This document shows positions 17,630-62,031 of a DNA stretch of 64,000 nucleotides, piece by piece. The position numbers were made by a program, and so were the translations under genes. The notes under the pieces were generated by a model. It was not told the DNA's origin, made no database searches, and was given only the letters and a program-made list of their open reading frames with translations. Origin of the DNA: a virus; IMG/VR virus record IMGVR_UViG_3300047440_000809, positions 1 through 64,000 of that record; one strand, 5' to 3'. Numbering within the stretch: position 1 is the first letter of the stretch; each line of letters opens with the position of its first letter.

Positions 17630-17925
17630 TAGAGTCTCCTTGGCGCCAGGCGATCTGGCCAAGCATCGTTGCTACCACCTGCACAGAGAAGAACGCCTGA
17701 GCAAGAACGTACGATCTTGTCGCCGTCGTCGGGCAGTGCCGCGACATACCAGCTGTCGTAAGGCTCGGTGCGATCCGGTGACGCCTCGATGAGCCTGAGC
17801 AATTTAGCCCGTCCGAATCGAATGTCGTCGGCTTCTATGGGAGAGATGTTGCCCTCGTATTCACTGAACACCTCGGCGTCAGGTGGGGCGTTTTTGAGCG
17901 TCTCGATCAACTCGGATACTTTCAC
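17629..17925 (-). CDS. Hypothetical phage protein
   Basis: MKVSELIETLKNAPPDAEV N-terminus, common in phage small proteins. Confidence 0.6.
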   Translation of the reverse strand: MKVSELIETLKNAPPDAEVFSEYEGNISPIEADDIRFGRAKLLRLIEASPDRTEPYDSWYVAALPDDGDKIVRSCSGVLLCAGGSNDAWPDRLAPRRL

Positions 17926-20051
17926 AGCTTCACGAGGTTTGCGCGCACGTACGGGAAGTTCACACCCTGGATGGAAATCTGCTGCGTGTCGAGATGGACC
18001 TCGCGAAACGTCGGCGGCTGCCTGATGTACTGCGACTGCTGAGCCCGCGTGAAGTACCAGAAGCTCGCGGGATTCCAGTAGGACACGTGCGTCGGGTCGG
18101 AGAATGCTCCCCACCCGTCCGTGCTCGGCGTCATCGACATGAGCCACCCGCCTGGCCGCAGGCAGCGGGTGATCTCGCTCATGGTCAACATCTTGTCGGG
18201 CAGGTGTTCGAGGAGGTCGCTCGCGCGGAACGCCCCGACCGAACCGTCCGCCCACGGCCACGGCGCCTTGGCTAGATCGGTGACGACAACCCCGACGCCG
18301 CTCGCCACGTTGTCCACCGGTGTCCACCCCGACCGCGGGTAGAGCCCACCGCCGAGGTCGAACGCCGGCACGTCCAACAGCGCGCACTCCCGCAGCACGA
18401 GGCGCTCCAGCCACTCCTCCTGGAGACGGTCGGTCGTCGACTTGATGAGCGGGATGTTCTGGGCCCACGTGTTCTCGCCCTGAATCCGATAGAGGTAGAG
18501 CGGCTTCGCGACGTGCTTGAACTTCGTCGCGAGGTACGTGCGCAGGATCAGTTCGTGGTCGTCCGCCACCGCGTAGCTCACGTCGTGCCCACCGGTCTTC
18601 TCGTAGACGCTCCGTCGCCACGCACGCACGTGGTTCGGCGCCGTGTAGATGTGCGAGACCGACAACGCCGTCAGGGGCAGCGCACGCACGCAGTCGTAGG
18701 TTCCTGGACGCACGCCGCCTACTGCCTCGTCGTAGAACGAGTAGCCGCTGATCATCCAGCCGCCGCGCAGCTCCGGCGCGCGGTAGGTCTGAGCCCCCTG
18801 GAGCGTATCGGCGCCCTCGACGAAGTCGGCCGAGTCCGAGTAGACGAAGCCGATCTCGGGGTCCATGAAGGCAGCCTCGACCTCTTCGAGCGCATTCGGC
18901 GCGAGGAGGTCGTCATGGTCGAGTTCGAGGAGCACATCGCCCTGGGCCGCGCTGAACGCGAAGAGCTTGCGGGCGCCAACGTGGGAGGAGGGCGCGTAGT
19001 CCTCGACGATGGTCACGCGCGGGTCGTCTCCCACGACGGCCTTGGCTTCCGCGGCGCGATCCTTGACGGGCTGCCGGCGGCCGCTCTTGTCGTTGACCGA
19101 GATCAGCCACACGAAGCGCTGATTGGTCTGGGACTTGAGCGACGCCCACGTCTGCGCGAGCCACTTCGTGTTGTGTGTCGGCGTGACGACAGTGATGAGC
19201 GGTCGATGCTCGTCGGCGAGCAAGACCTCTTGTTCCCCCGTGCGCATCGCGGGAAGGATGTTGGGCACGGGTGTTGGGCGCGGCTGCGGGTGCGGCGAGA
19301 AGCGATCACACGCGTCCGGTAGTTGATTCAAGTGGCGTTCGTACGTAACGCCGCAGACGCACAGGTCGGTCGCGCGCCGCTGCGGCTTGTCCTCGGGCCC
19401 TGTCCACACACGCGTGTGGAAGTCGGTGCCGTAGACGCTGCCGGGGATCACGCCGGGGGTGACGCCGAGTTTCCACAGCACGTAGGGCAGGGAGAGCTGG
19501 TCTTGGATGGAGCGCGTCTTGTTCTCGCCCCACCACATCTCGTCGAGCGGCTCTGTCTTCCCGATCCGCCGCACGACCACTCCGCCCGCGTAGAGCTGGT
19601 GGTTGTCAGGAAGCCCTTCAGCGCGATACGTCTCGACCTGAGCGACGAACGGTAGGTCAGCGTACTTGGGGAGCGCTGCGGACTCCCGCGCCTCGTCGTA
19701 GATGTTGTCGCGCTCAGGGTGCCTGAAGAAGGCGATGTCGTGGCCCTTGAGCGCTTCTAGGCATGCAGACACGAAGCGCTGCGGGTTGGTCACGGTGATG
19801 GAGGCGTCGATCCAGACGACGATGTCGCCGTCTGCAAGGTCGAGCATCCCCGGCGTCATCTTGTAGAACTTCGCCGCAAGCCGAGACGGGCGCGGATACG
19901 GATTGGCTGGTGGGTAGCGAAACTCGATCTTCCACGTCTTCGACGTCAGCGCCGGGTCGTCCGTGAACGCCACGAAGTCATACCCGCCCGTGTCGAACTC
20001 CTTGAGCGTGTCGGCGCCGCCGAATAGCGCTGTGTAGAAGACGACTTTCAC
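17922..20051 (-). CDS. Three-domain DUF616-like glycosyltransferase / GT2 / SAM methyltransferase
   Basis: YTALFG..D, WIDAS, HPER, QDQLS; VVTPTHN, ELDHDD, DDHEL; DLGGG, LEHL, LRPGG, DPTH. Confidence 0.85.
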   Translation of the reverse strand: MKVVFYTALFGGADTLKEFDTGGYDFVAFTDDPALTSKTWKIEFRYPPANPYPRPSRLAAKFYKMTPGMLDLADGDIVVWIDASITVTNPQRFVSACLEALKGHDIAFFRHPERDNIYDEARESAALPKYADLPFVAQVETYRAEGLPDNHQLYAGGVVVRRIGKTEPLDEMWWGENKTRSIQDQLSLPYVLWKLGVTPGVIPGSVYGTDFHTRVWTGPEDKPQRRATDLCVCGVTYERHLNQLPDACDRFSPHPQPRPTPVPNILPAMRTGEQEVLLADEHRPLITVVTPTHNTKWLAQTWASLKSQTNQRFVWLISVNDKSGRRQPVKDRAAEAKAVVGDDPRVTIVEDYAPSSHVGARKLFAFSAAQGDVLLELDHDDLLAPNALEEVEAAFMDPEIGFVYSDSADFVEGADTLQGAQTYRAPELRGGWMISGYSFYDEAVGGVRPGTYDCVRALPLTALSVSHIYTAPNHVRAWRRSVYEKTGGHDVSYAVADDHELILRTYLATKFKHVAKPLYLYRIQGENTWAQNIPLIKSTTDRLQEEWLERLVLRECALLDVPAFDLGGGLYPRSGWTPVDNVASGVGVVVTDLAKAPWPWADGSVGAFRASDLLEHLPDKMLTMSEITRCLRPGGWLMSMTPSTDGWGAFSDPTHVSYWNPASFWYFTRAQQSQYIRQPPTFREVHLDTQQISIQGVNFPYVRANLVKL

Positions 20052-20143
20052 GGGGGCTCACGCTACACCAACGGCACGGCACTGCCAATAGTTTAACGCC
20101 GCCGATTTGTGACCCGTCTACCACCGGGCGTAGGATGACAAGA

Positions 20144-20227
20144 ACATAGAGGAGCCCCCTCCTCACCCGTGACCGGAGTAACCGGCGCTGATTCTTCCTG
20201 GCAACCCCAGGTGGACAGCGCCTTTTT
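20144..20227 (+). ncRNA. Conserved structured leader RNA plus intrinsic terminator, copy A
   Basis: ACATAG, hairpin, GTGA-CCGG-AGTAA-CCGG-CGC, terminator ending TTTTT; homologous to 60018-60102; TAGGAT -10 at 20131. Confidence 0.7.
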
Positions 20228-20247
20228 GCGTTTCTGGAGGTTCCCCG

Positions 20248-23200
20248 ATGTCGACCGGCAACGTCACAGTCCAGCCACTCTTCAACCGTACGGGCTCGCG
20301 GATGGTTCAGGGCGAGCTGGTCCGGATCTCCGGCACGAACGGGATCTTGCTCGCGCAGGCCGATTCGCAGCCGCACGTGACAGGCTACATCGGCGTCGTG
20401 AACTCCGGCGTCGTGAATCCCGGCGGTCCTGTCGCTGTGGAGACGGTGGGTCTGCCACGCGTGCTGCTGGAGACGGGACTCACACCAGTCGCGGGTGATC
20501 CGCTCTACATCTCCGCGAGCGTCGCCGGCCGCGCGACGAACGTGGCCCCGGTGATCAAGGTCGTCATCGGCACGATCTCGGATGCGAGCAGCTACGCGCA
20601 CGACAACTCCGTCGAGTGCGTGATCGCCGGCGGTGGCGGTGGCAGCGGCGCTCAAGGAGCGCAGGGCTTTCAGGGCGGCGTGCAGGGTTCACAGGGCGCC
20701 ACGGGTGCACCCGGTGCGACAGGCGCGAGCGGTGCCACAGGCGCTCCGGGCGCGACAGGAGCGACGGGCGCGAGCGGTGCGGCGGGTGCGCAGGGCTCGC
20801 CGGGAACACCGGGCACGAACGGCGCGCAAGGATCGCAGGGTGCGCCTGGCGGCACGCAGGGCTTTCAAGGTCCGCAAGGCGCCGCCGGTGGATCGCAGGG
20901 TTTCCAAGGTGCGCAGGGCTTTCAAGGTGGTGGCTTTCAAGGTGCACAAGGCGGAACCGGAACGACGGGCGCTTCGGGGACGCCGGGCGCGACGGGAGCG
21001 ACAGGAGCCGCCGGTGCTGCTGGAGCAACAGGCGCGAGCGGCGCGACGGGCGCCACGGGCGCATCGGGAGCTGCTGGTGCACAAGGTACGGCGGGCACCG
21101 CAGGTGCGCAGGGCAACCAAGGAGCGCAGGGCAACCAGGGCTTCCAAGGCAACACCGGCACGGGGAATCAAGGATCCCAGGGTGCACCCGGCGGGTCACA
21201 GGGCTTTCAGGGACCGCAAGGTTCCCCCGGCGGCACGCAAGGATTCCAGGGCGGGAACGGCGCTCAGGGATCGACGGGTGCTCAAGGCGCAACGGGCACG
21301 ACGGGTTCGGTAGGACCGTCCGGGGCGACGGGCGCGACTGGCACGACGGGAGCGACAGGAGCGACTGGTGGTCCTGGTGCAACGGGCGCGAGCGGCGCCA
21401 CGGGAGCCACGGGCTCGACAGGCGGCACGGGGCCCGCTGGTGCGCAGGGCTTTACGGGAGCGCAGGGGTTCCAGGGAAATACGGGCGTCGGCACGCAAGG
21501 CCCGCAGGGCACGCCGGGTGGTTCGCAAGGCTTCCAAGGTCCACAAGGATCGCCGGGCGGCGTGCAAGGCTTTCAGGGCGGTAACGGCGCGCAAGGATCG
21601 ACCGGCGCGACCGGCACGACGGGATCTCAGGGATTCCAAGGCGCGACCGGCACGGCGGGTGTGCAAGGATCGACGGGCGCCACCGGCACGACTGGCGCCT
21701 CGGGCGCGACTGGCGGAACTGGCGCCACCGGCGCCACTGGTGCGCAGGGGTCGCAAGGCGCTATCGGCACGACGGGCGTGACGGGCGCCACCGGAGCGCA
21801 GGGCGCGACCGGTGTGCAGGGGTTCCAGGGCGGGAACGGCGCGCAGGGAACGACGGGCGCGCAAGGCAACACCGGCACGACAGGCGCGCAGGGCTTTCAG
21901 GGCAACACCGGCACGGGGAACCAGGGCGCTCAGGGCGCGCCGGGCGGGTCACAGGGGTTCCAAGGTCCGCAAGGATCGCCGGGTGGCTCGCAAGGCTTCC
22001 AAGGCGGACTCGGGCCGCAGGGTCCCGTCGGTGCCGCGGGCGCGCAGGGCACGGCGGGTGCGCAAGGATTCCAGGGCTCGACGGGCACGCAGGGGTTCCA
22101 AGGAAACACCGGCGCGGGCACGCAAGGAGCGACGGGCACGCAGGGGTTCCAGGGGACGGCGGGTGCGCAGGGCGCGAAGGGCAATCAGGGCTCGACAGGC
22201 ACGCAAGGTGCGATCGGCGCGCCGGGTGCTGCGGGTGCGACGGGAGCGACGGGCGCGCAAGGTGCCACTGGCACGAGTGGTGCGACGGGCGCCACCGGTG
22301 CGACAGGTGCGAGCGGAGCCACGGGCGCTCAGGGCGGTCTCGGATCACAAGGCTTTCAGGGCAACACGGGAATCGGGAATCAAGGTGCGCAGGGCGCACC
22401 CGGTGGATCGCAGGGCTTTCAAGGGCCACAGGGTTCTGCTGGTGGATCGCAGGGTTTCCAGGGCGGCGTGGGCGCTCAAGGCGCGACGGGCGCACAGGGC
22501 AACACGGGTACTGCTGGTCCTGCTGGCGCGACTGGCGCCACGGGCGCAAGCGGTGCCAGCGGTGCAACGGGAGCGACAGGTGCTTCAGGTGCCACAGGTG
22601 CGTCGGGCGCGACTGGCGCGACGGGCTCCGCCGGTGCACAGGGCTACCAGGGCGGTTCGGGCGCGGCAGGCACGAACAACGCGGCCAACTGGACGATCGG
22701 GACGGCGACGCGGCGCTACTTCATCGTCGACGCGATCAACGGCAACGACAGCAACGCGGGCTTCACCGATGTGCTCCCGGCCAACCCCACGACCACCGCG
22801 AAGCAGACGCTGTCGGCGCTGGCTGCGGTCATTCCGATCGCCGGCGCAGGGCGCACGATCGAGATCATCATCGGCGCCGGCACGTACGCCGACAGCGTCG
22901 ACGTCTTCAACGCGCTGAACGGCTACGCGACCAACAGCACCATCCGCGGTACCGGTACGAACACGAACGCTGGTGCCGTCGCCTTCGCGGGGGACACGAA
23001 CGACTGGACGTACCTCGGTGCGACGACGTCAACCGGGCTGTTCGCGGCCGGCTACAACCCCACGAGCGGTGGCACGAGCGCGACCATCACCTGCGTGCAG
23101 ACCGACACCGGCGCGCCGGGATTCGCAGCCGAACCTCTGAAGCCGCTCGGCTGCCGCGTACGCTTCGACATCAACACGCCGACCGTGGCGCTGCAAGGGA

Positions 23201-26200
23201 AGACGTTCTCGGTCATCGGCGTTCCGGCGAGCAACCAGCTCGTGCTCAGCTCGTCGATCACGGTCGCCACCGCGGACATCTTCTACATCGAGGACCCCGG
23301 TGTGGTTACGACAGGATCTGCCAGCTTCTACGACCACGAGATCGGTCCGACTGGTCTCCAGTTCGCGGGTATCTCGACGAATGGCGCCTGGTCGCTGCGT
23401 GATGGCCGGTACGCGCTGGCGTTCTGCCAGTCGGTGTCGTTCGCGTTCACGAACAACCGTCAGGTGACGCTCAACACGTTCTGGATCACGCGCTCGGCGT
23501 TGGTGCAGGTTGGGCCCAACCAGTCGACCGGAGCGCTGACGAGCACTCTCGACAGCCTGACTGTCTCTACTGCTTCGCTCTTCACCTACACCATTATGAC
23601 GATCACCAACCCCACGGCGCTCTCCTTCGTCGGGAAGAACGTGATCGGTGGAGACGTGACGATCGCGGGCGGCGCGCTGGCACCGGCCGAGACGCTGACC
23701 GGGTTCGGTGGCCCCGGGAATTCCGGTGTGACGGCAGACAAGGCGAACGCACTTCGCATCCTCGGCAAGATGACGCTGAACGGGACGCGGATGGCGTTCG
23801 ATGGCCTCTACTTCCCCTCGACGACACAGGCGACGGCGATTGTCATCGTGGGCACGTGCGACTTGATCTTCCGCCTCGGGACCTACGGCGGTCCCACGAC
23901 GGACGCAGCGGTGGACGTCGCACTGTCGGTCGGTTCGAGAATCACCGCAGTCAACCCGTCCTCGGGGGCCACGACCAGCTTTCAGATCACTGGTGCCAAC
24001 GGCGACGTCCGATTCGGCCGACAGAACCTCGGTGAAACCCTCGGCGTCGTATACGGCGACTTCGCGGGATTGTTGGGGCTGTACTACTCGACGCGCACGC
24101 CGAACGGCGACTTGTGGAACAGCTCGCAGGGGCCAAACGGCATCGCAGATCCGCTGGCCGCCTACTCGGTGCTCGGCAACGTCATCGATACCTTCGTCGC
24201 GTACAATCAGGGCGCAGACATCCCGATCAAGAGCGTCGTTCGCTACTTCAACCGCGGCGACTCGGTGTGGGCTGTGCAGCCTGCACAGGCGGGAACTGCC
24301 GCCGGAGCGTCCGGGTTCATCGGCGTCACGATAGGGAAGATCAAGAGCGGCAGCAACGGGTTAGTGGGCATCCGTGGCGTGCTCGACGTGCTGTACAGCG
24401 ACGGCACGGTCAACACGCCGGGTCTCCCTGTGTACGTCTCCGACGTCCTGGGGCAGGCACGCACGACGCCCCCCGCAGTGGGAGCACGACAGATCGGCTG
24501 GTCCGCCGCCGTCAACTCGGTTGCTCTCATGCAAGAGGCCAACGTCGAGACGAACAACGACCTCGCCTCGTGGCCGGTGGCCAACTTCCGCTACTACGCA
24601 GTCGACGGCGTGAACGGGAACGACGCGAATGTAGGGTATTCCGACACGTCGCTGGCAGACGCCGGCACCGGCACGAAAGCTCTCAAGACACTCGCGGCAC
24701 TGGCCGTAATATTTCCGCGTAACGGCGCGGGCCGCCAGGTCGAGATCGCCATTGCATCCGGCACGTACACCGGGAACCTCCAGGCGTTCTTGGCCGGCAC
24801 CACGGGGTACGCATTCGCGCTCGTGCGCGGCACCGGTACGAACGCCACGGCCAGCTCGGTGGCCTTCGCCGGCGACGCGAACGACTACATCTACGCGGGC
24901 GCGGTGACGGCCACGGGTGCGAACGGCGCCGGGTACAACCCGACCAGTTCCACTACCGGGATCACGCTGCCGACACAGAAGGTCGGTGGCGGTGCCTCGA
25001 CGTTCCCGGCGGAGCTTGCCACGAACTGCCCCTACGGCTGGCGCATCCGGTTCTCGGCGACCACGACGACGGTGGCGCTGCGAAACCACTGCTTCAACAT
25101 CATCGGCGTACCGACATCAGCGAACCTGTCGCTGGACACGTCGATCACCTGGGCTTCCACCGACGTCTTCTTCATCGAGAAGGCCGGCGTGGTCTTCAGT
25201 GACCCCAGCACGCTGTCGCTGGACTCCACCATCACTCTGGCCGGGCTCGATCTCGGTTTCGTGAACTTCTCGGTTGGCGTCTACAACAGCGCCTTCTGCT
25301 CCTACGGTGGCATCAGTGCGATGCTGCCGAAGAGCTTGAACTTCACCGACACGTACACGTCGCCCCTCGGGGGATTTCCAGTAGTCGGCGGCAACCGCAT
25401 CAGCGGGTCAGTCAGCCAGGATATGGGGTCGATGACAGCTCCAACAGGAACGGTCGTCATCGGAGCCTTGTCGGCCACTGCACCGAACGAGATCTACGTC
25501 ACCGACAACGTGGTTGTGGGAACTTTCATCAGTGTGAGTGGCGGATACACAGGCGCGCAGGAGTCTTCGTCTTCGGGCGCGGGTCAGATTGGCGGTGTCA
25601 ACACTCCAGTTCGAATCCTCGGTGGCACTGGCGGGGTGGGATCACTGGAGGCTGCGCTATTGCTGCGCGGGACTGCCGTACGCCTTGGGGTCATCGACGC
25701 TAACAGTACAAAGTTTGTCGTCGGCGTGAAGGTCTTCGGACAATGCGCCATCGACACGGCGGGTGGAACGGGCGGCAGCTTGACCGGGACCGTCGAGACA
25801 GTGGGTATGAGCCTCATCGACGCTCAAGGGAGCACAGTCGTGCTCGGATCTGCAAATGTCGGGGTGACCGGCGCCGCGGGCGACATCCAGCTCAACGACG
25901 GCAGCGCTGTAGTCGGAGGGAACGGCGTGTTCGTTTCCTGGAGCAGCGTGCAGAACATCACCGACTTCCGCGATGGCGCCGGCAACCACATCCTTGGTAT
26001 CAGCACTGATCGGAACGTCACCTTGGGGGTGGTGCAGTACCCGACCTCCGGACTGCTGGCGATTCCCGCGCGCACTGTCATGCGCATGAATAGCGACGGC
26101 ACTGTCGCTACAGCACTGGCGGGCAGCACCGGAACCGCCGCCGGTATCATCGGCGTCGCGCTCACAGCGCAACCTCACATCGGATCGGCTATCTTGGTCG

Positions 26201-26823
26201 TCGAGTCGGGACCTGCTTGGGTCACATTCGATTCGCCGCCAACCCGCGGTCAGGCAGCCTACCTGAGCGATATTTCCCCGGGGCAGGCGACGACAACACA
26301 GCCAGCCGTGGCGGTGTACCTGGGCGTCGTCGAGGTTGTAACCGGCTCGGCAGGACGAATCAACTTCGTCGCTCCCGTCGGTGACGAGGTCGGTGGCGGG
26401 TCCCAGACATACGTGTCCGACGAGGTGGACCTGGCGGCCATCGGACAGACCCACGTGAACCTGCCCTCGATGCCGACGAAGCAGTTGATGCTGACGGCTC
26501 CTCCGAGAGTCGTCATTACAGTCCACAACGGCAGCGGCTACACGGGGCCAGCCCAGGTGGGAGCTGGTGTGGCCGTCAGCGGCACCATCACTGTGCAGTA
26601 TTGTGCCCTGACGGATCTGAGCGCAGCGACGCTGAATGCGGCATCCGGCGCGGGGGTCCCGATCAACATGTTCACGCTCGACATCTCGACAGACACGGTC
26701 ATGGGCGCGTTGGACCTGAGCGCCCCAGGCAGCGACTTCGTGGTCGACGTCCAGACGCCGTTCGGGGGTCTGCAACCGGTCAAGTGCAAGGTCTACTTCA
26801 CCGGCGTGCTCATCGACGCGTAG
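20248..26823 (+). CDS. Giant collagen-like virion fibre/spike protein
   Basis: 2191 aa; about 680 aa Gly-X-Y (GAQ/GAT/GFQ); duplicated beta-rich modules; three cement-like domains; GGAGG RBS. Confidence 0.85.
20641..22670 (+). repeat. Collagen Gly-X-Y coding repeats
   Basis: 9-bp periodic GGN repeats with recurring higher-order unit [24 protein letters not shown]. Confidence 0.9.
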
Positions 26824-35926: not shown

Positions 35927-36160
35927 GTGTCAAGCACCACCCACATCGGCACCGAGATTCGTCGGGTCCGACTGAGCCTCGACATGACGCTGGAGGAGTT
36001 CGGCGAGCGCGTCGGGATCGCGTGGCAGACGATCGCCGCGTACGAGACCGGACGTGCGACGCCTCCGTCCGATCGGCTGTTGCGCATCCTGCACGCGACT
36101 CGAAAGGCCAAGGAGCCGTTCCGGGTCGAGCGGATCGCGCGAGCGCTGGCTGCGGCGTGA
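35927..36160 (+). CDS. XRE/Cro-like HTH regulator
   Basis: IRRVRLSLDMTLEEFGERVGIAWQTIAAYETG; upstream CTTGACA...TGTCAAG inverted pair. Confidence 0.85.
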   Translation: MSSTTHIGTEIRRVRLSLDMTLEEFGERVGIAWQTIAAYETGRATPPSDRLLRILHATRKAKEPFRVERIARALAAA

Positions 36161-36420
36161 ACGAGGTCTGGAGCCACACCTCCTACGCGACCGGTGACGG
36201 CGTCGATGTTCCTGCGCTGGCGTTGCGCATCACGGTCAGACACGACGGCGTGCTTCTGCGAGCTGTGCTGACGTCCGCCACGGCGACCTCCTACCAACTT
36301 TGTGGGCGCCCGGCGGTCGTGTTCGCGCAGGCGCGCGCCGACGAAGGGATCACCTGGGCCCGCGGGTGGGATGGACCGGCCGTGGATGCGCTCGCCGCCT
36401 ACAGGGCGCTCGCGTCGTGA
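36157..36420 (+). CDS. WARGW-family protein 9
   Basis: DEGITWARGWDGPAVDALAAYRALAS*. Confidence 0.8.
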   Translation: MNEVWSHTSYATGDGVDVPALALRITVRHDGVLLRAVLTSATATSYQLCGRPAVVFAQARADEGITWARGWDGPAVDALAAYRALAS

Positions 36421-36606
36421 GCCCGAAACCCCGCCGCAGCCGTGCCAAGCCACGCCGGCACCGGCTGCGCGCCCCCTACTACCGCCCGCGCCGGCCGCTC
36501 TTCTCGGTCACGACCATCGCGCGCACGCTCGACAAGGGGTTCGTGTACCTGACGGTCGCCCTGGAGCGTCTGCTGGCGTCCACAGGCACGTGATAGACTA
36601 GTCTGC

Positions 36607-36888
36607 GTGGCGGTCTGCGAGTTCCTGCGCTGCCCAGGCTGCGGGCACGACAAGAAGGCCGAGCAATTCGGGCTCACACCGAGGGGCAATTTCGACCCCG
36701 ACAACGCCTACCCGAACGAGCTGTCGCTGCGGCGCACCACAATCGGCGGACGCGGCCGCTGTTCGGTCGAGCGCTTCCCTGCGCCGCTCCCCTTCGCGCT
36801 CGGGATGCGCCAGATGCTCAAGTACCGACTCGCCCAGCTCGAAGCTGACATCCGCGCTGCGGGTGTTGAGCTGCCGGACGACGAGTGA
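36607..36888 (+). CDS. Hypothetical Zn-ribbon protein
   Basis: CPGCGH. Confidence 0.6.
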   Translation: MAVCEFLRCPGCGHDKKAEQFGLTPRGNFDPDNAYPNELSLRRTTIGGRGRCSVERFPAPLPFALGMRQMLKYRLAQLEADIRAAGVELPDDE

Positions 36889-42147: not shown

Positions 42148-42686
42148 TGTTCGAGAACCCGAAAGTCGTAGCGCGCGGGTCGATCATCGGCGGCCTCGTC
42201 AACACCGCTCTCGCCGCCCGCTGCTTCTTCGTGCACGAGTACGTCGTCGGAGGCTGGCTTGCGCTCCTGTCGCTGGCGATGGTCGGGCAGTTCTATCTGG
42301 CGGGGAGCCAGGAGAAGTGAGCGACGTCTGCGCGTGCGGCCCCGAGCGCGACACGAAGGACAAGGAGCTGGTCAGCAGGGGCGTGCCAGCCATGATGCTC
42401 TGGTTCTGTTGCGACTGCGGGAAGCCCCGGCCCGGGACGCCCGTCGCGCCCGGCGGCGAGATGTACAAGCCGGTCGATGGAAGCGCCACTCGAACGCCCT
42501 GACGCCGACGACATCCTCGTCGTGTGCGCGAACTGCGGCCACATCGAGGACTTCCACGCGGAGGAGAAGGAAGGGCAGGACCGCTGGTGCCTCGCGCTGA
42601 ACTGTCACGGCTGTCCCGGCTGGGCGCCGAAGTCGACGCGCGCCGCGATTTGACGACCAGCGGCGCCTGGGCGTACGCTCGTCTGC

Positions 42687-42896
42687 ATGGCACGACTCAG
42701 GCACCGTGGTCTCCGTAGGTTCATCTTCGGCGCCCCCAAGCGTCGCAAGCGGCGCGCCTCGGGCGTCGCTTCTCGCGCCAAGAACGCCCCCAAGCACTGC
42801 AAGGTGTCACTCGGCTCGTGCATGCGCGGGTCGGGCGGCCGGGCCAAGGCCAGCAAGTGCATGAAGGGCTACTGGCGCTGCATCAAGGGCGGCTGA
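42687..42896 (+). CDS. Small Arg/Lys-rich protein
   Basis: MARLRHRGLRRFIFGAPKRRKRR; upstream TTGACG-N18-TACGCT. Confidence 0.6.
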   Translation: MARLRHRGLRRFIFGAPKRRKRRASGVASRAKNAPKHCKVSLGSCMRGSGGRAKASKCMKGYWRCIKGG

Positions 42897-58990: not shown

Positions 58991-59985
58991 CCCTGCGCGT
59001 CCTCTACGTGTCAGCCTATCCCCTCCCCTATTCGGAGTCGTACACGCACACCGAGATTCGTTGGATGCAGGCGCAAGGAGTCGACGTGCGACTGTGGGCG
59101 AAGAGCAGGGCCAACGCCCCCGGGTATCCACTCGCCGCGCACGAGACAATCGGCGGTTCGGTCAGCACCGTCATCAACGAGTTCAAGCCCCACGTGATCC
59201 ACAGCCATCGCGTGGACTCGGCGCTTGCTGTCTGGCCCACCGCCGACATGCGCGGCATCCCGCTGACGATCCGCGGGCACAGCGTGGACTTCGCCGAGCG
59301 TGACTACCGAAAGCTCACCGGTGCGGCGCGCATCTGGCTCTTCCCCCACATGGCGGTGCTCTTCCCCGACCAGCCAAACGTCGAGGCGATGCCCGTGGCC
59401 TACGACTCCACCTTGTTCTACCCCGAAGAGCCGGACCCGCGGCGCTACGTGGTGCGCGCTGGGTTCTGCAACACGAACAAGGACGTCTCGGGGTTCATGG
59501 CTGTCGCGCAGCTGTGCCCGACGTTAGCGTTCGAGCTGATCGTGACCGGTCCATACCGCGAGTTCATCGAGGAGGTCGAGGCAGCGGCACCACCGAACGT
59601 GCGCATGCACAAGACCAAGACGAACGAGGAGGCGGCCGCGATCGTGCGCAAGGCGTGGGTCTGCCTCCGGAGCCACGACACGGGCGCGCACGCCTACGGG
59701 ATGCCCGTGTCGATCGCCGAGGCGATGGGCGCCGGACTGCCAGTCGTCGTGCGAGCGCGAGATCCCTACGGTACGGCGCGCTTCGGTCCGGAGGACTACG
59801 TGGGAACCGCGGGATGCCTCTACCAGACCCACGTCGAGGGGGCAAGGTTCGTACACGAGGCGGTCGGGTGGGCGCGTGCCCGGTGGGAAAAGGTCCGGAC
59901 GGAGACGGTCATGCAGGCCGCCCGGTACCGCGCAGACGTCGTGCTCCCCCGCATGCTCGATACCTGGCTCGACCTCGCAACTTGA
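58987..59985 (+). CDS. GT4-like glycosyltransferase
   Basis: YP..SESY..TEI, GMPVSIAEAMGAGLPVV. Confidence 0.8.
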   Translation: MTLRVLYVSAYPLPYSESYTHTEIRWMQAQGVDVRLWAKSRANAPGYPLAAHETIGGSVSTVINEFKPHVIHSHRVDSALAVWPTADMRGIPLTIRGHSVDFAERDYRKLTGAARIWLFPHMAVLFPDQPNVEAMPVAYDSTLFYPEEPDPRRYVVRAGFCNTNKDVSGFMAVAQLCPTLAFELIVTGPYREFIEEVEAAAPPNVRMHKTKTNEEAAAIVRKAWVCLRSHDTGAHAYGMPVSIAEAMGAGLPVVVRARDPYGTARFGPEDYVGTAGCLYQTHVEGARFVHEAVGWARARWEKVRTETVMQAARYRADVVLPRMLDTWLDLAT

Positions 59986-60017
59986 CGGACGGTCGCCCTT
60001 CGGTTTCAATCGATCTC

Positions 60018-60102
60018 ACATAGGGGGGAGCAATCCCCTCGCCGCGACCTGAGTAACAGGCGCCTATCGCTGGGGATGGTCCCCGGTGACGGGCGCCTTT
60101 TT
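60018..60102 (+). ncRNA. Conserved structured leader RNA plus intrinsic terminator, copy B
   Basis: Promoter TTGACG-N17-TTCAAT (59982-60010); ACATAG, hairpin, GCGA-CCTG-AGTAA-CAGG-CGC, terminator TTTTT. Confidence 0.7.
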
Positions 60103-60176: not shown

Positions 60177-60674
60177 ATGGGAACCGCACAGAATTTCGGT
60201 CAGACGCACAAGAAGCTCTACTTCGACGTGACCTGGGGAACGACGGTGGGCGCGCAGGCGTTCGCCTGTACGGCATTCCGCACCGGCCTGACAGGCGACC
60301 GCTTCGGCGCGCTCATGAAGGCGATGCAGGCGTGCACGGGGGGCACACCGCAGTCGGTCATGGCGGAGAGCGAGTGCTCGGCCTGGTTCCAGTGTCTCCG
60401 CACCGCCACGGTCTCGGGCGGTGTCCACATCGGGTTCAACGTCTACTTCGCGGCTCCCACGGTCGGGAAGATCACCACCGGGCAGCTCCCGGCGACGGGA
60501 CACTTCGCGGCGCTGCCGGCGGATCTCGTCGGGATGGTCGCGGGCCAGAGCGCCGTGTTCGGGACGGTGGGGACCGCGCGGAACTTCTCGGTCGTCGTCG
60601 CGAAGCAGCAGGCGACGACCGCGGCCGTCTCGGGCGTGCTCTACGTCCAGCGGCAGCACTCGATCGAGGTCTGA
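60177..60674 (+). CDS. Beta-rich protein, probably structural
   Basis: 165 aa, Thr/Gly/Ala-rich beta pattern, GAGGAG RBS. Confidence 0.65.
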   Translation: MGTAQNFGQTHKKLYFDVTWGTTVGAQAFACTAFRTGLTGDRFGALMKAMQACTGGTPQSVMAESECSAWFQCLRTATVSGGVHIGFNVYFAAPTVGKITTGQLPATGHFAALPADLVGMVAGQSAVFGTVGTARNFSVVVAKQQATTAAVSGVLYVQRQHSIEV

Positions 60675-60705: not shown

Positions 60706-62031
60706 ATGACACATCCGATTCTCGAAGTCGTCGACCTCGACAAGCTCCGTCCGTTAGACCTTCCAGCGCCGATCCGCCTCGTCTTTCTGTCCCCAAAGCG
60801 AGGCGGACCGGCGCTGAGTGCTATCCGCGAGGCCCTCTCCAAGAAGGGACAACTGCGGTTCTCCGCGACGGCAACGCGGACATTCGTCGATGTCACGTCC
60901 GAAGAGCCAGAAGCGCCGCTGATCGCCCTGGACACGATCGTGCGCGACGACGCCGCGGGCTTGGAGCGCATGCTGTTCAGCGTGATCCCGCACGTCGACG
61001 AGATCGTGCTTGGCGTGGATGGCCGCAGCGACAAGGAGACGCTGAAGGTCGCCCAGCAGTATGCGGACTGCGTGTACGTGTTCGAGGCCATCGACATCGG
61101 CATGAGGCCCGAAGACTGGGCGCCGACCGCCGCGAACCCCCGGGGGAAGATCGACTTCGCCGCTGCACGGAACATCGGGCGGAGCCGCGTGCAAGCCCCG
61201 TGGGCGCTCGTGCTCGATAGCGACGAGTACCTGATCGCCGAGGACTTCCGGGACGCCGTCAAGAACGCCAGGCCATCGCAGGGGGCGTTCTTCATCAACG
61301 TGGTCATGGCGGACACCGGCGTTCGGCAGTTCGTGAGCCGTGACCACCAGAGGCTCGCGCGGACGGGCTACGTGTGGTCGGGCGCGAAGGACAATCAGCT
61401 AGACTGCAAGGGCAGCGAATCACCCGCAGCGCTTCCGGTAGAGATCCTGCACGACACACGGCTCCGCGCCGACCAGGACCAACGAGACGCGCAGCGCGAG
61501 GCGGCCACGGAGGACTTGGTTGCGCGGGCCGAGCGTGGCGACCTCAACGCGCTCTTTCACCTTGCGAAGCACCGCATCGGCGGCTCGACGGCCATCGAAG
61601 AGGCCGTGCGTCTGACGGAGGATTTTCGGCTGCGTGTGGAGCCGAACTCGCCAATCGCGTTTCAGCGCCAGTGGGTCGCGCTCGGCCTCGCCTTCCGGTT
61701 CTACAACGAGGACAACCACCACGAGGCGAATCGCTGGGCGTGCCGCGTTCTGCTTGATGGTCCGTCGATCGCCGCCTTCTGCCTTCTCGGCGACGTGGCC
61801 GAATGCGAAGGGGACCTCGAACGAGCGTGCAACTGGTACGAGGCGGCGTGCGCCGTGATCGACACGCGCGGCATCACGTGGCCTGGCTTCTCAGAGCTGC
61901 GGTGGGGTCGCCTGGTCGCTCTTCGGTTCGTCCTTGCCGAGGGCAAGAAGCTCGCGCTCAACGCCGCGGGGCCGGACAGTCCTCACGGCGCTTCAACATC
62001 CACAGGCCCGACAGCAGAAACTTCAGGCTGA
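60706..62031 (+). CDS. GT2 glycosyltransferase with TPR-like C-terminus (protein O-glycosyltransferase type)
   Basis: IVRDDA..LERML, VDGRSD, DFAAARN, LVLDSDE. Confidence 0.8.
   Translation: MTHPILEVVDLDKLRPLDLPAPIRLVFLSPKRGGPALSAIREALSKKGQLRFSATATRTFVDVTSEEPEAPLIALDTIVRDDAAGLERMLFSVIPHVDEIVLGVDGRSDKETLKVAQQYADCVYVFEAIDIGMRPEDWAPTAANPRGKIDFAAARNIGRSRVQAPWALVLDSDEYLIAEDFRDAVKNARPSQGAFFINVVMADTGVRQFVSRDHQRLARTGYVWSGAKDNQLDCKGSESPAALPVEILHDTRLRADQDQRDAQREAATEDLVARAERGDLNALFHLAKHRIGGSTAIEEAVRLTEDFRLRVEPNSPIAFQRQWVALGLAFRFYNEDNHHEANRWACRVLLDGPSIAAFCLLGDVAECEGDLERACNWYEAACAVIDTRGITWPGFSELRWGRLVALRFVLAEGKKLALNAAGPDSPHGASTSTGPTAETSG

Follow-up and report, generated by a model that had tools for sequence, protein, structure and literature searches.

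A conserved hairpin that overlaps intrinsic terminators ahead of late-type operons in a family of soil viruses, and its possible role in antitermination

The first 64 kb of the 104,563-bp IMG/VR virus record IMGVR_UViG_3300047440_000809 (66% G+C; designated G000 here) were analyzed as one window. Two leader sequences in this window, copies A and B, each carry a small hairpin, called hairpin 2 below, followed by an intrinsic terminator whose first five bases are the 3' side of that hairpin. A third copy, C, lies 3.5 kb past the window end. R1, a covariance model that spans hairpin 2 and the terminator, identified about 43 distinct copies across about 25 related viral contigs, and both of the competing folds are conserved. 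The reading that we favor, tentatively and with a little less than even confidence, is that a virus-encoded factor clamps hairpin 2, blocks completion of the terminator and so would gate the late (virion) operons, with a logic like that of the bacterial ribonucleic antiterminator (RAT). The features of the three copies are as follows; coordinates are those of the window unless marked as genome positions, which refer to the whole record.

20105-20227, plus strand: copy A, whole leader, from sequence reading
20107-20112 and 20131-20136, plus strand: copy A promoter-like elements, -35-like TTGTGA and -10-like TAGGAT, with an 18-nt spacer and followed by 7 nt; weak by consensus
20144-20149, plus strand: copy A ACATAG, predicted 5' end of the transcript, beginning 8 nt after the -10-like hexamer
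20149-20164, plus strand: copy A hairpin 1, GAGGAG cccc CTCCTC, from sequence reading and folding
20169-20188, plus strand: copy A hairpin 2, GUG-A-CCGG-AGUAA-CCGG-CGC, putative antiterminator or factor-binding hairpin, from reading, folding and covariation
20184-20222, plus strand: copy A intrinsic terminator, GGCGCTG...CAGCGCC, with T5 at 20223-20227; it shares its first five bases with the 3' side of hairpin 2
20236-20240, plus strand: copy A ribosome-binding site GGAGG, with ATG at 20248
59982-60102, plus strand: copy B, whole leader, from sequence reading
59982-59987 and 60005-60010, plus strand: copy B promoter-like elements TTGACG and TTCAAT, with a 17-nt spacer and followed by 7 nt, from sequence reading
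60018-60023 and 60023-60040, plus strand: copy B ACATAG and hairpin 1, from reading and folding
60044-60063, plus strand: copy B hairpin 2, GCG-A-CCUG-AGUAA-CAGG-CGC, from reading, folding and covariation
60058-60097, plus strand: copy B intrinsic terminator, with T5 at 60098-60102, overlapping hairpin 2
Genome 67531-67660 (L003:3531-3660), plus strand: copy C, from sequence reading

An earlier sequence-only reading had described at copy A a two-hairpin leader with an overlapping terminator that recurs 40 kb away at 60018. All the features that it listed were found in place, including the start of ACATA 8 nt after the last base of the -10-like hexamer in both copies. Hairpin 2 of copies A and B has the general form GYG-A-CCNG-AGUAA-CNGG-CGC, and an 18-nt core pattern matched only sites A and B within the window. 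Both copies fold far better than shuffled sequences (z of -4.8 and -4.0, respectively), and when the RNA is cut before the 3' arm of the terminator the minimum-energy fold consists of hairpins 1 and 2. Copy C has a promoter, TTGACA-18-CATACT, followed by ACATAG, hairpin 1, a hairpin 2 with CCAG-AGCAA-CUGG, and a terminator; it has in addition a hairpin, CUCUG-AGCGAAC-CAGAG, that competes with hairpin 2. The only clear plus-strand intrinsic terminators found were those of the three copies, a plain one behind the gene for a 262-aa protein (U-tract at genome 70064) and one with a T4 tract at about genome 69097. After the T-run of most copies (e.g. window 20223-20234) there is a bipartite U-tract, UUUUU-GCG-UUUC or a near variant, that is unusually conserved across paralogues and genomes and for which we offer no explanation beyond an extended U-tract.

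Covariation was counted in an alignment (A9) of 27 distinct sequences. The upper stem of hairpin 2 is paired in all 27. At pair 3 there are 11 A-U, 8 U-A, 4 C-G and 4 G-C, and at pair 4 there are 24 G-C, 2 U-A and 1 A-U. Pairs 1 and 2 vary only from C-G to U-G, a restriction explained by their 3' GG doubling as the base of the terminator. In total, 19 cells of hairpin 2 were altered on both sides, compared with 4.7 in shuffled alignments (0/500 as high), and 89% of its cells are paired, a figure that falls to 34-49% when the 3' partners are slid by 1-3 columns. Two compensatory changes had been claimed between copies A and B; CCGG/CCGG versus CCTG/CAGG is such a change, whereas GTG/CGC versus GCG/CGC proved to be one-sided, from U-G to C-G. 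The base of the terminator is 99.5% paired. Its GGCGC/GCGCC is all but invariant, with a single G-U among the 27 sequences, and covariation is seen at pairs 6 and 7. The five shared bases (GG plus CGC) are common to hairpin 2 and the terminator in all aligned copies, and the overlap is kept in all of the approximately 43 copies. Since the 3' GG(CGC) of hairpin 2 is always the base of the terminator stem, the two structures exclude each other, as had been proposed from copies A and B.

The competing folds are very unequal in energy. Hairpin 2 has a median of -6.8 kcal/mol versus -29 kcal/mol for the terminator region, and the minimum-energy fold destroys hairpin 2 in 35 of 36 copies. When the upper stem of hairpin 2 is forced to form, at least 2 nt are left unpaired before the U-tract in 29 of the 36. 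Because the terminator dominates energetically, the default state should be termination, with hairpin 2 needing help to persist; we infer that termination does take place at the U-tracts.

Relatives of the virus were retrieved with the 262-aa protein as probe. They comprise five viral contigs of 89-121 kb, taken whole (G001-G005), and 36 metagenome loci; further relatives are viral contig G127 and G006, a 108-kb contig in a 7.9-Mb metagenome-assembled genome (MAG) of the Vicinamibacterales. A covariance-model search for homologues and covariation, which the sequence-only reading had suggested, produced both. On six whole viral genomes R1 found 15 copies, 1-3 in each, and on the metagenome loci about 26 additional distinct ones. 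In the MAG that contains G006 there were 3 copies, all on the viral contig and none elsewhere. For the divergent clade of G004 and G127, the model finds only the copy of the capsid-type operon described below. There were no matches in 633 kb of unrelated viral DNA, and 120 other Vicinamibacterales genomes yielded just 3 weak matches (25-27 bits), which had neither a U-tract nor a promoter. A model built on the relatives recovers A and B at an E value of about 1e-14; together with the empty result on unrelated viral DNA, this indicates more than a chance resemblance. The element is restricted to one virus family. It had been presented as a candidate new element, which agrees with the Rfam results: the whole window had no match at gathering thresholds, and permissive scans of the three copies returned chance hairpin matches only (miRNA models at 12-23 bits, with cut-offs of 70-98). 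A loose pattern, ACATAG-N18-34-GAGTAACNGG, matched 120 loci on viral contigs; these were judged to be chance matches and were reused as a negative control.

The upstream parts of the leader are less constant. ACATA[AG] is present in 29 of 41 copies. In the 12 others both ACATAG and hairpin 1 are missing while hairpin 2 and the terminator are kept; what all copies share is therefore hairpin 2 together with the terminator and not, as first proposed, a pair of hairpins. Among 20 copies with a recognizable TTGAC-type -35 sequence, the distance from its first T to ACATA[AG] is 35-41 nt, mostly 36-37, which places ACATA[AG] at about +1. Hairpin 1 was found in every foldable copy with ACATA[AG] (26/26). 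It has 4-9 bp of unrelated sequence, a median energy of -11 kcal/mol and loops of 3-10 nt with arbitrary sequence; it starts between +4 and +9, and at +6 or +7 in 23 of the 26. We consider it probably a stabilizer of the 5' end. About half of the copies add a third hairpin: an upstream hairpin of at least 4 bp that sequesters the 5' arm of hairpin 2 was present in 19 of 37 copies, against 7.6 +/- 2.4 in the control (0/500 reached 19). It occurs in copy C and not in A or B, and its partner base tracks the variable third pair of hairpin 2. Judged by its pairing, this hairpin may represent a third, anti-antiterminator-like state, which fits a tight attenuator that is off by default.

Other explanations of ACATAG and the loop were considered and rejected. 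A promoter core for a T7- or SP6-like single-subunit polymerase was rejected on the grounds that the 17 nt upstream are unconserved, that clear -35 and -10 hexamers are present and that no polymerase gene was seen. A reverse-strand start codon (CTATGT) for the gene divergent from copy C was rejected as a general cause, there being no such gene at A or B; the divergent gene of copy C itself probably starts further in. Pairing of the A-rich loop with the U-tract, and pairing of ACAUAG with sequences after the terminator or at the start codon, were both unconserved.

The loop of hairpin 2 is characteristic of the genome rather than of the family. The AGTAA loop, claimed as conserved from copies A and B, is confined to this genome and a small number of relatives. 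Loops elsewhere include AAAAU, AAGAU and AAAAA (G001), AGCAA in three copies (G002), ACAA, ACACA and AACA (G005), AUCAC in two copies (contig L165), AAUAA in two copies (contig L166) and ACGAA (G004). The AAAAU loop of G001 tops a CUCG stem, and the ACACA loop of G005 goes with a GCUA flank. The average edit distance between loops of one contig is 0.67, compared with 1.85 after shuffling (0/20000), and the corresponding values for the 5' stem arm of hairpin 2 are 0.28 and 1.05. The interior of the terminator and the 20 nt upstream are about equally different within and between contigs. Syntenic copies ahead of the capsid-type operon differ among genomes and match their own paralogues. This homogenization suggests co-evolution with a genome-specific partner acting in trans. 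The earlier proposal of a protein or ligand switch can accordingly be narrowed: loop variation among genomes, with uniformity inside each, disfavors a shared small-molecule ligand or a conserved host surface and favors a genome-specific partner, presumably a factor encoded by the virus.

These loops and the compensatory changes also bear on the simplest alternative, which is that the leaders contain constitutively leaky terminators whose role is to adjust expression levels or keep out stray early transcripts, hairpin 2 serving only in folding, stability or processing. Such use has a precedent in the Tn916 T1 terminator, since promoter-proximal terminators can insulate in mobile elements (PMC11658703); hairpin 1 resembles a generic 5' stabilizer, and no regulator was found in domain scans. 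An unregulated attenuator or insulator would, however, leave unexplained the compensatory upkeep of a weak hairpin that the terminator destroys at equilibrium, the uniformity of the loop within genomes and its variation between them, and the covarying third hairpin. We regard it as distinctly unlikely.

If a factor clamps hairpin 2, as we favor, the order of events can be proposed as follows. A host-type, sigma-70-like promoter would start the RNA at ACAUAG. Next would come the 5' hairpin of arbitrary sequence, probably as a 5'-end stabilizer, and then hairpin 2, a 4-bp stem capped by an A-rich pentaloop and in most cases lengthened by GYG/CGC and a bulged A. Downstream of it would lie a strong intrinsic terminator, its basal GGCGC being the 3' side of hairpin 2. 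Without the factor, the terminator would displace hairpin 2 and a transcript of about 85 nt would be released. The virus-encoded factor, specific to its own genome, would recognize hairpin 2 by its loop and bulge and hold it closed; the base of the terminator stem would then be blocked, and RNA polymerase could enter the fiber, capsid-type or 165-aa/glycosyltransferase (GT) operon. Occlusion of this kind is favored chiefly by the invariant overlap of hairpin 2 and the terminator.

The closest parallels are bacterial. In the RAT systems of BglG, SacY and LicT, the leader contains one small hairpin that shares part of its sequence with the 5' arm of an intrinsic terminator, and when bound by the protein this hairpin occludes the terminator (PMC3369931, PMC12591593). 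Hairpin 2 likewise overlaps the 5' arm of its terminator, by five bases, with support for both folds. It differs from RAT, which has 29-30 nt (PMC3369931), in being 13 nt long, or 20 nt with the lower stem, in having another consensus without the RAT sequence, in its genome-specific loop and in its position ahead of viral late operons rather than sugar operons; the CAT domain of the RAT-binding proteins was also absent from five viral genomes. The systems of the ANTAR proteins (EutV, NasR, AmiR) resemble the viral leaders in having two hairpins upstream of a terminator, the second of which is mutually exclusive with it. Both ANTAR hairpins end in a hexaloop in which position 1 is A and position 4 is G (PMC3369931), whereas here the loops of hairpin 1 are arbitrary and those of hairpin 2 have 4-5 nt, mostly without the G at position 4. 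The sequence-only reading had recognized the motif as neither ANTAR, RAT nor put, and this was borne out, as we found no hexaloop pattern, no RAT sequence and no conserved hairpin 1.

The main rival to occlusion is processive antitermination resembling that of lambda N. In lambdoid phages the boxB hairpins of nutL and nutR are alike within one phage and differ among related phages; boxB has a 5-bp stem and a pentaloop, which is GNRA-like (GAAAA or GACAA). By analogy, hairpin 2 would be a nut-like loading site from which a small Arg-rich viral protein would ride the polymerase past the leader and inner terminators. As in the N-boxB systems of lambda, P22 and phi21, hairpin 2 is a short stem with a purine-rich pentaloop, near-identical within a genome, in a setting where phage expression is controlled at terminators; its loop consensus, A-N-N-A-N, is unlike that of boxB and its stem has 4 bp. 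Processivity would also suit the capsid-type operon, which contains an internal terminator (genome 69068-69099) and no convincing promoter before the 262-aa gene, and five genomes share a conserved, leaderless protein of 42-69 aa that starts with an Arg-rich segment. The arginine-rich motif of N binds boxB (PMC11480772). This small protein is not homologous to N, is a candidate only, and was not found in G001; no recognizable N homologue was seen. Moreover, a loading site need not touch a terminator and boxB does not overlap one, yet the 5-base overlap is universal here. Nut sites include boxA, while no boxA-like element was found between hairpins 1 and 2, the linker being unconserved among copies. 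N acts processively and on early operons. Here the release site lies only about 40 nt past hairpin 2, and G005 and others, rather than rely on processivity, have another copy of the element after the terminator of the 262-aa gene. On balance an N-like mechanism seems to us unlikely, if still worth serious attention.

Two other phage systems share features with the leaders. At the lambdoid PR'/tR', a late promoter is closed by a nearby terminator, giving a short RNA (6S or StxS) until the antiterminator acts (PMC7547250). The likeness lies in a host-type promoter directly before late genes with a terminator shortly downstream. Q, however, binds DNA and needs no RNA hairpin, whereas the RNA structure covaries here; no Q genes were found in five genomes, and the element has three or more copies per genome compared with one. 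A -10-like pause element requires T at -7. ACATAG was therefore rejected as a sigma-dependent pause element: both ACATAG and CATAGN have A at position 2 and never have T at position 6.

HK022 put consists of two stem-loops just after a promoter. This arrangement is reminiscent of copies A and B, and the leader RNA could conceivably work without a factor, through put-like direct action on the polymerase or as a small-molecule riboswitch. Hairpin 1, however, has no conserved sequence and is often missing altogether, and the loop differs among close genomes, which would be surprising for contact with a conserved polymerase surface or with a metabolite that all share. Too few unpaired nucleotides are conserved to make up a ligand pocket, and if the RNA let polymerase through constitutively, in the way of put, a conserved terminator would serve no purpose. 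We consider this the most improbable of the explanations. The put, EAR, canT and conAn2 RNAs are promoter-proximal structured RNAs that suppress downstream terminators in mobile elements (PMC11658703). They are larger, conserved in sequence and processive, mostly without a specificity factor, whereas here just a hairpin of 13-20 nt is conserved and it abuts the terminator.

Several observations weigh against control by a clamping factor. The promoters of copies A and B score 8-9/12 in a simple sigma-70 consensus scan, which does not call them and by which they are weak; copy C, at 10/12, is the only one of the three that is called. The lower stem of hairpin 2, GYG/CGC, has only one-sided support (C or U opposite G) and loses one pair in the GCUA class, so the guaranteed overlap with the terminator may be only 2 bp. 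Homogenization within genomes could in principle be explained by short-tract gene conversion. The terminator inside the capsid-type operon, with no strong promoter behind it, would be easier to account for by a processive mechanism. Domain searches of G000, G001, G002, G004 and G005 gave no match to CAT (CAT_RBD, PF03123; control positive in 4 known genomes), Q (PF06530 or PF03589; controls positive) or the NusG N-terminal domain of RfaH/LoaP systems (PF02357; control positive in 10). A CAT protein encoded by the host is still conceivable. For ANTAR (PF03861) the best score was a sub-threshold 13.6 bits in G002, in a search of low power, as the control genomes had no match either. Pfam and PHROG scans identified no regulator besides two Cro/CI-type helix-turn-helix (HTH) proteins, and no N-like family. 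Finally, the sequencing runs that match a 10-kb stretch across copies B and C are all DNA metagenomes (soil or rhizosphere), with no RNA run among them.

One candidate for a partner is the small Arg-rich protein. In the window it has 69 aa (42687-42896, plus strand), an Arg-rich N-terminus and four cysteines (C-x6-C ... C-x6-C), with no family match; homologues of 42-60 aa occur in G002-G005. In the five genomes the gene has a promoter, TTGAC(A/G)-N17/18-TACGCT, with an ATG 7-10 nt later (window site 42650-42896), so its mRNA is presumably leaderless. The protein could be the partner of hairpin 2, or it could be a DNA-condensing protein. A more specific proposal, which we hold to be possible though doubtful, is that the family has a new pair made up of a small virus-encoded RNA-binding antiterminator and a cognate hairpin of 13-20 nt. 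Such a pair would be allele-specific in the manner of N/boxB and would occlude the terminator locally in the manner of RAT. It would be used at every virion operon, would often be tightened by an anti-antiterminator hairpin, and may have the Arg-rich four-cysteine protein as its protein member. For another, basic protein of 155 aa, encoded at genome 99720-100187, an ESM Atlas look-up was uninformative. Elsewhere in the window (35927-36888, plus strand), the gene for a Cro/CI-type HTH protein of 77 aa is followed, about 450 nt on, by that for a 93-aa protein (36607-36888) whose N-terminus resembles a CxxC zinc ribbon. Both proteins are kept in G002, G003 and G005, and the 93-aa protein in G004 as well; they are possible early regulators.

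The genes behind the two copies in the window are as follows.

20248-26823, plus strand: collagen-repeat fiber gene, 2191 aa, behind copy A (PHROG tail-fiber families, E 2e-93; Pfam Collagen, E 2e-55)
60177-60674 and 60706-62031, plus strand: two-gene unit behind copy B, encoding a 165-aa protein and a 441-aa GT2-like protein, respectively

In G000 each of the three copies heads a rightward late-type unit (fiber, capsid-type and 165-aa/GT). Homologues of the fiber in G001 and G003, and of the 165-aa protein in G001 and G002, are again located directly behind a copy of the element. The replication genes (PolA, helicases, thymidylate kinase) are elsewhere, mostly on the opposite strand, and none is preceded by a copy. 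Copy A lies between two divergent genes. The one upstream (17922-20051) is encoded on the opposite strand, and the fiber ATG follows the T-run at a distance of just about 20 nt, so read-through of the terminator is the only visible route to a fiber transcript. These locations bear on the proposal that the terminated transcripts of about 85 nt are themselves the product, as regulatory small RNAs like StxS, the short PR'-tR' RNA of Stx phages, in which hairpin 2 or its loop would act as a seed or bind a protein. Every copy comes with a promoter and a strong terminator of its own, there are three paralogues per genome, and a functional small RNA from a late-promoter leader has a precedent (PMC7547250). 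Hairpin 2 is nevertheless predicted to be unfolded in the terminated RNA, and each copy lies directly ahead of a co-oriented operon, copy A being the sole possible promoter for its gene. We give little credence to small RNAs as the primary product; they are compatible with a switch and could be its by-product.

Copy C precedes about 15 rightward genes (rough gene map), including that of the 262-aa protein, which is beta-rich. No other protein of the family is nearly as conserved: the 262-aa protein has 85-88% identity in four relatives and 68% in G004, compared with 30-70% for the others. An AlphaFold model from 21 sequences reached a pLDDT of only 46, and the designation as a capsid protein stays a guess. 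Directly behind the plain terminator of this gene, at genome 70097-70130 (L003:6097-6130), is the sequence TTGCCT-18-TATCAT with an ATG 6 nt later, which suggests a second leaderless unit. At the equivalent position G005, L167 and L165 have a copy of hairpin 2 and the terminator without hairpin 1. Divergent from the promoter of copy C, a gene for a small protein with two transmembrane segments (genome 67282-67510, L003:3282-3510, minus strand) is kept in six of six genomes.

The record belongs to a family of viruses of about 90-120 kb from soil and rhizosphere (G000, G001-G006 and G127), three of which have direct terminal repeats. Pfam scans of the family list a DUF87/HerA-type domain, an FtsK_4TM domain, PolA, Dam methylase, nucleotide-sugar enzymes and a conserved tyrosine recombinase that carries a DnaJ-type zinc finger. 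The families that they list do not include a terminase, a portal or an HK97 capsid protein. The sole hint of a host is that one member, G006, was binned in the Vicinamibacterales (Acidobacteriota) MAG. The 165-aa protein had no tblastn match among named phages, and a search for related loci with the same protein was also empty.

Phage late genes are known to be timed by activators, by sigma factors and by the antiterminators N and Q, which are processive. To our knowledge, a local antiterminator hairpin competing with a terminator, as in bacterial sugar, nitrate and ethanolamine operons, has not been part of this picture. Phages go unmentioned in a 2025 review of RNA-binding antiterminators. 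Mechanisms of this kind are already known from bacteria; the novelty lies in the RNA family itself, in its placement at viral late genes, in its allele-like specificity and in the lack of a known antiterminator protein. The RNA side of the putative switch is documented in about 43 copies, by compensatory changes in both folds and by a signature of co-evolution with a partner, in a poorly known family of soil viruses. The cognate and non-cognate loop variants that these viruses supply are a ready test of specificity, and could yield orthogonal RNA-protein switches for use as tools.

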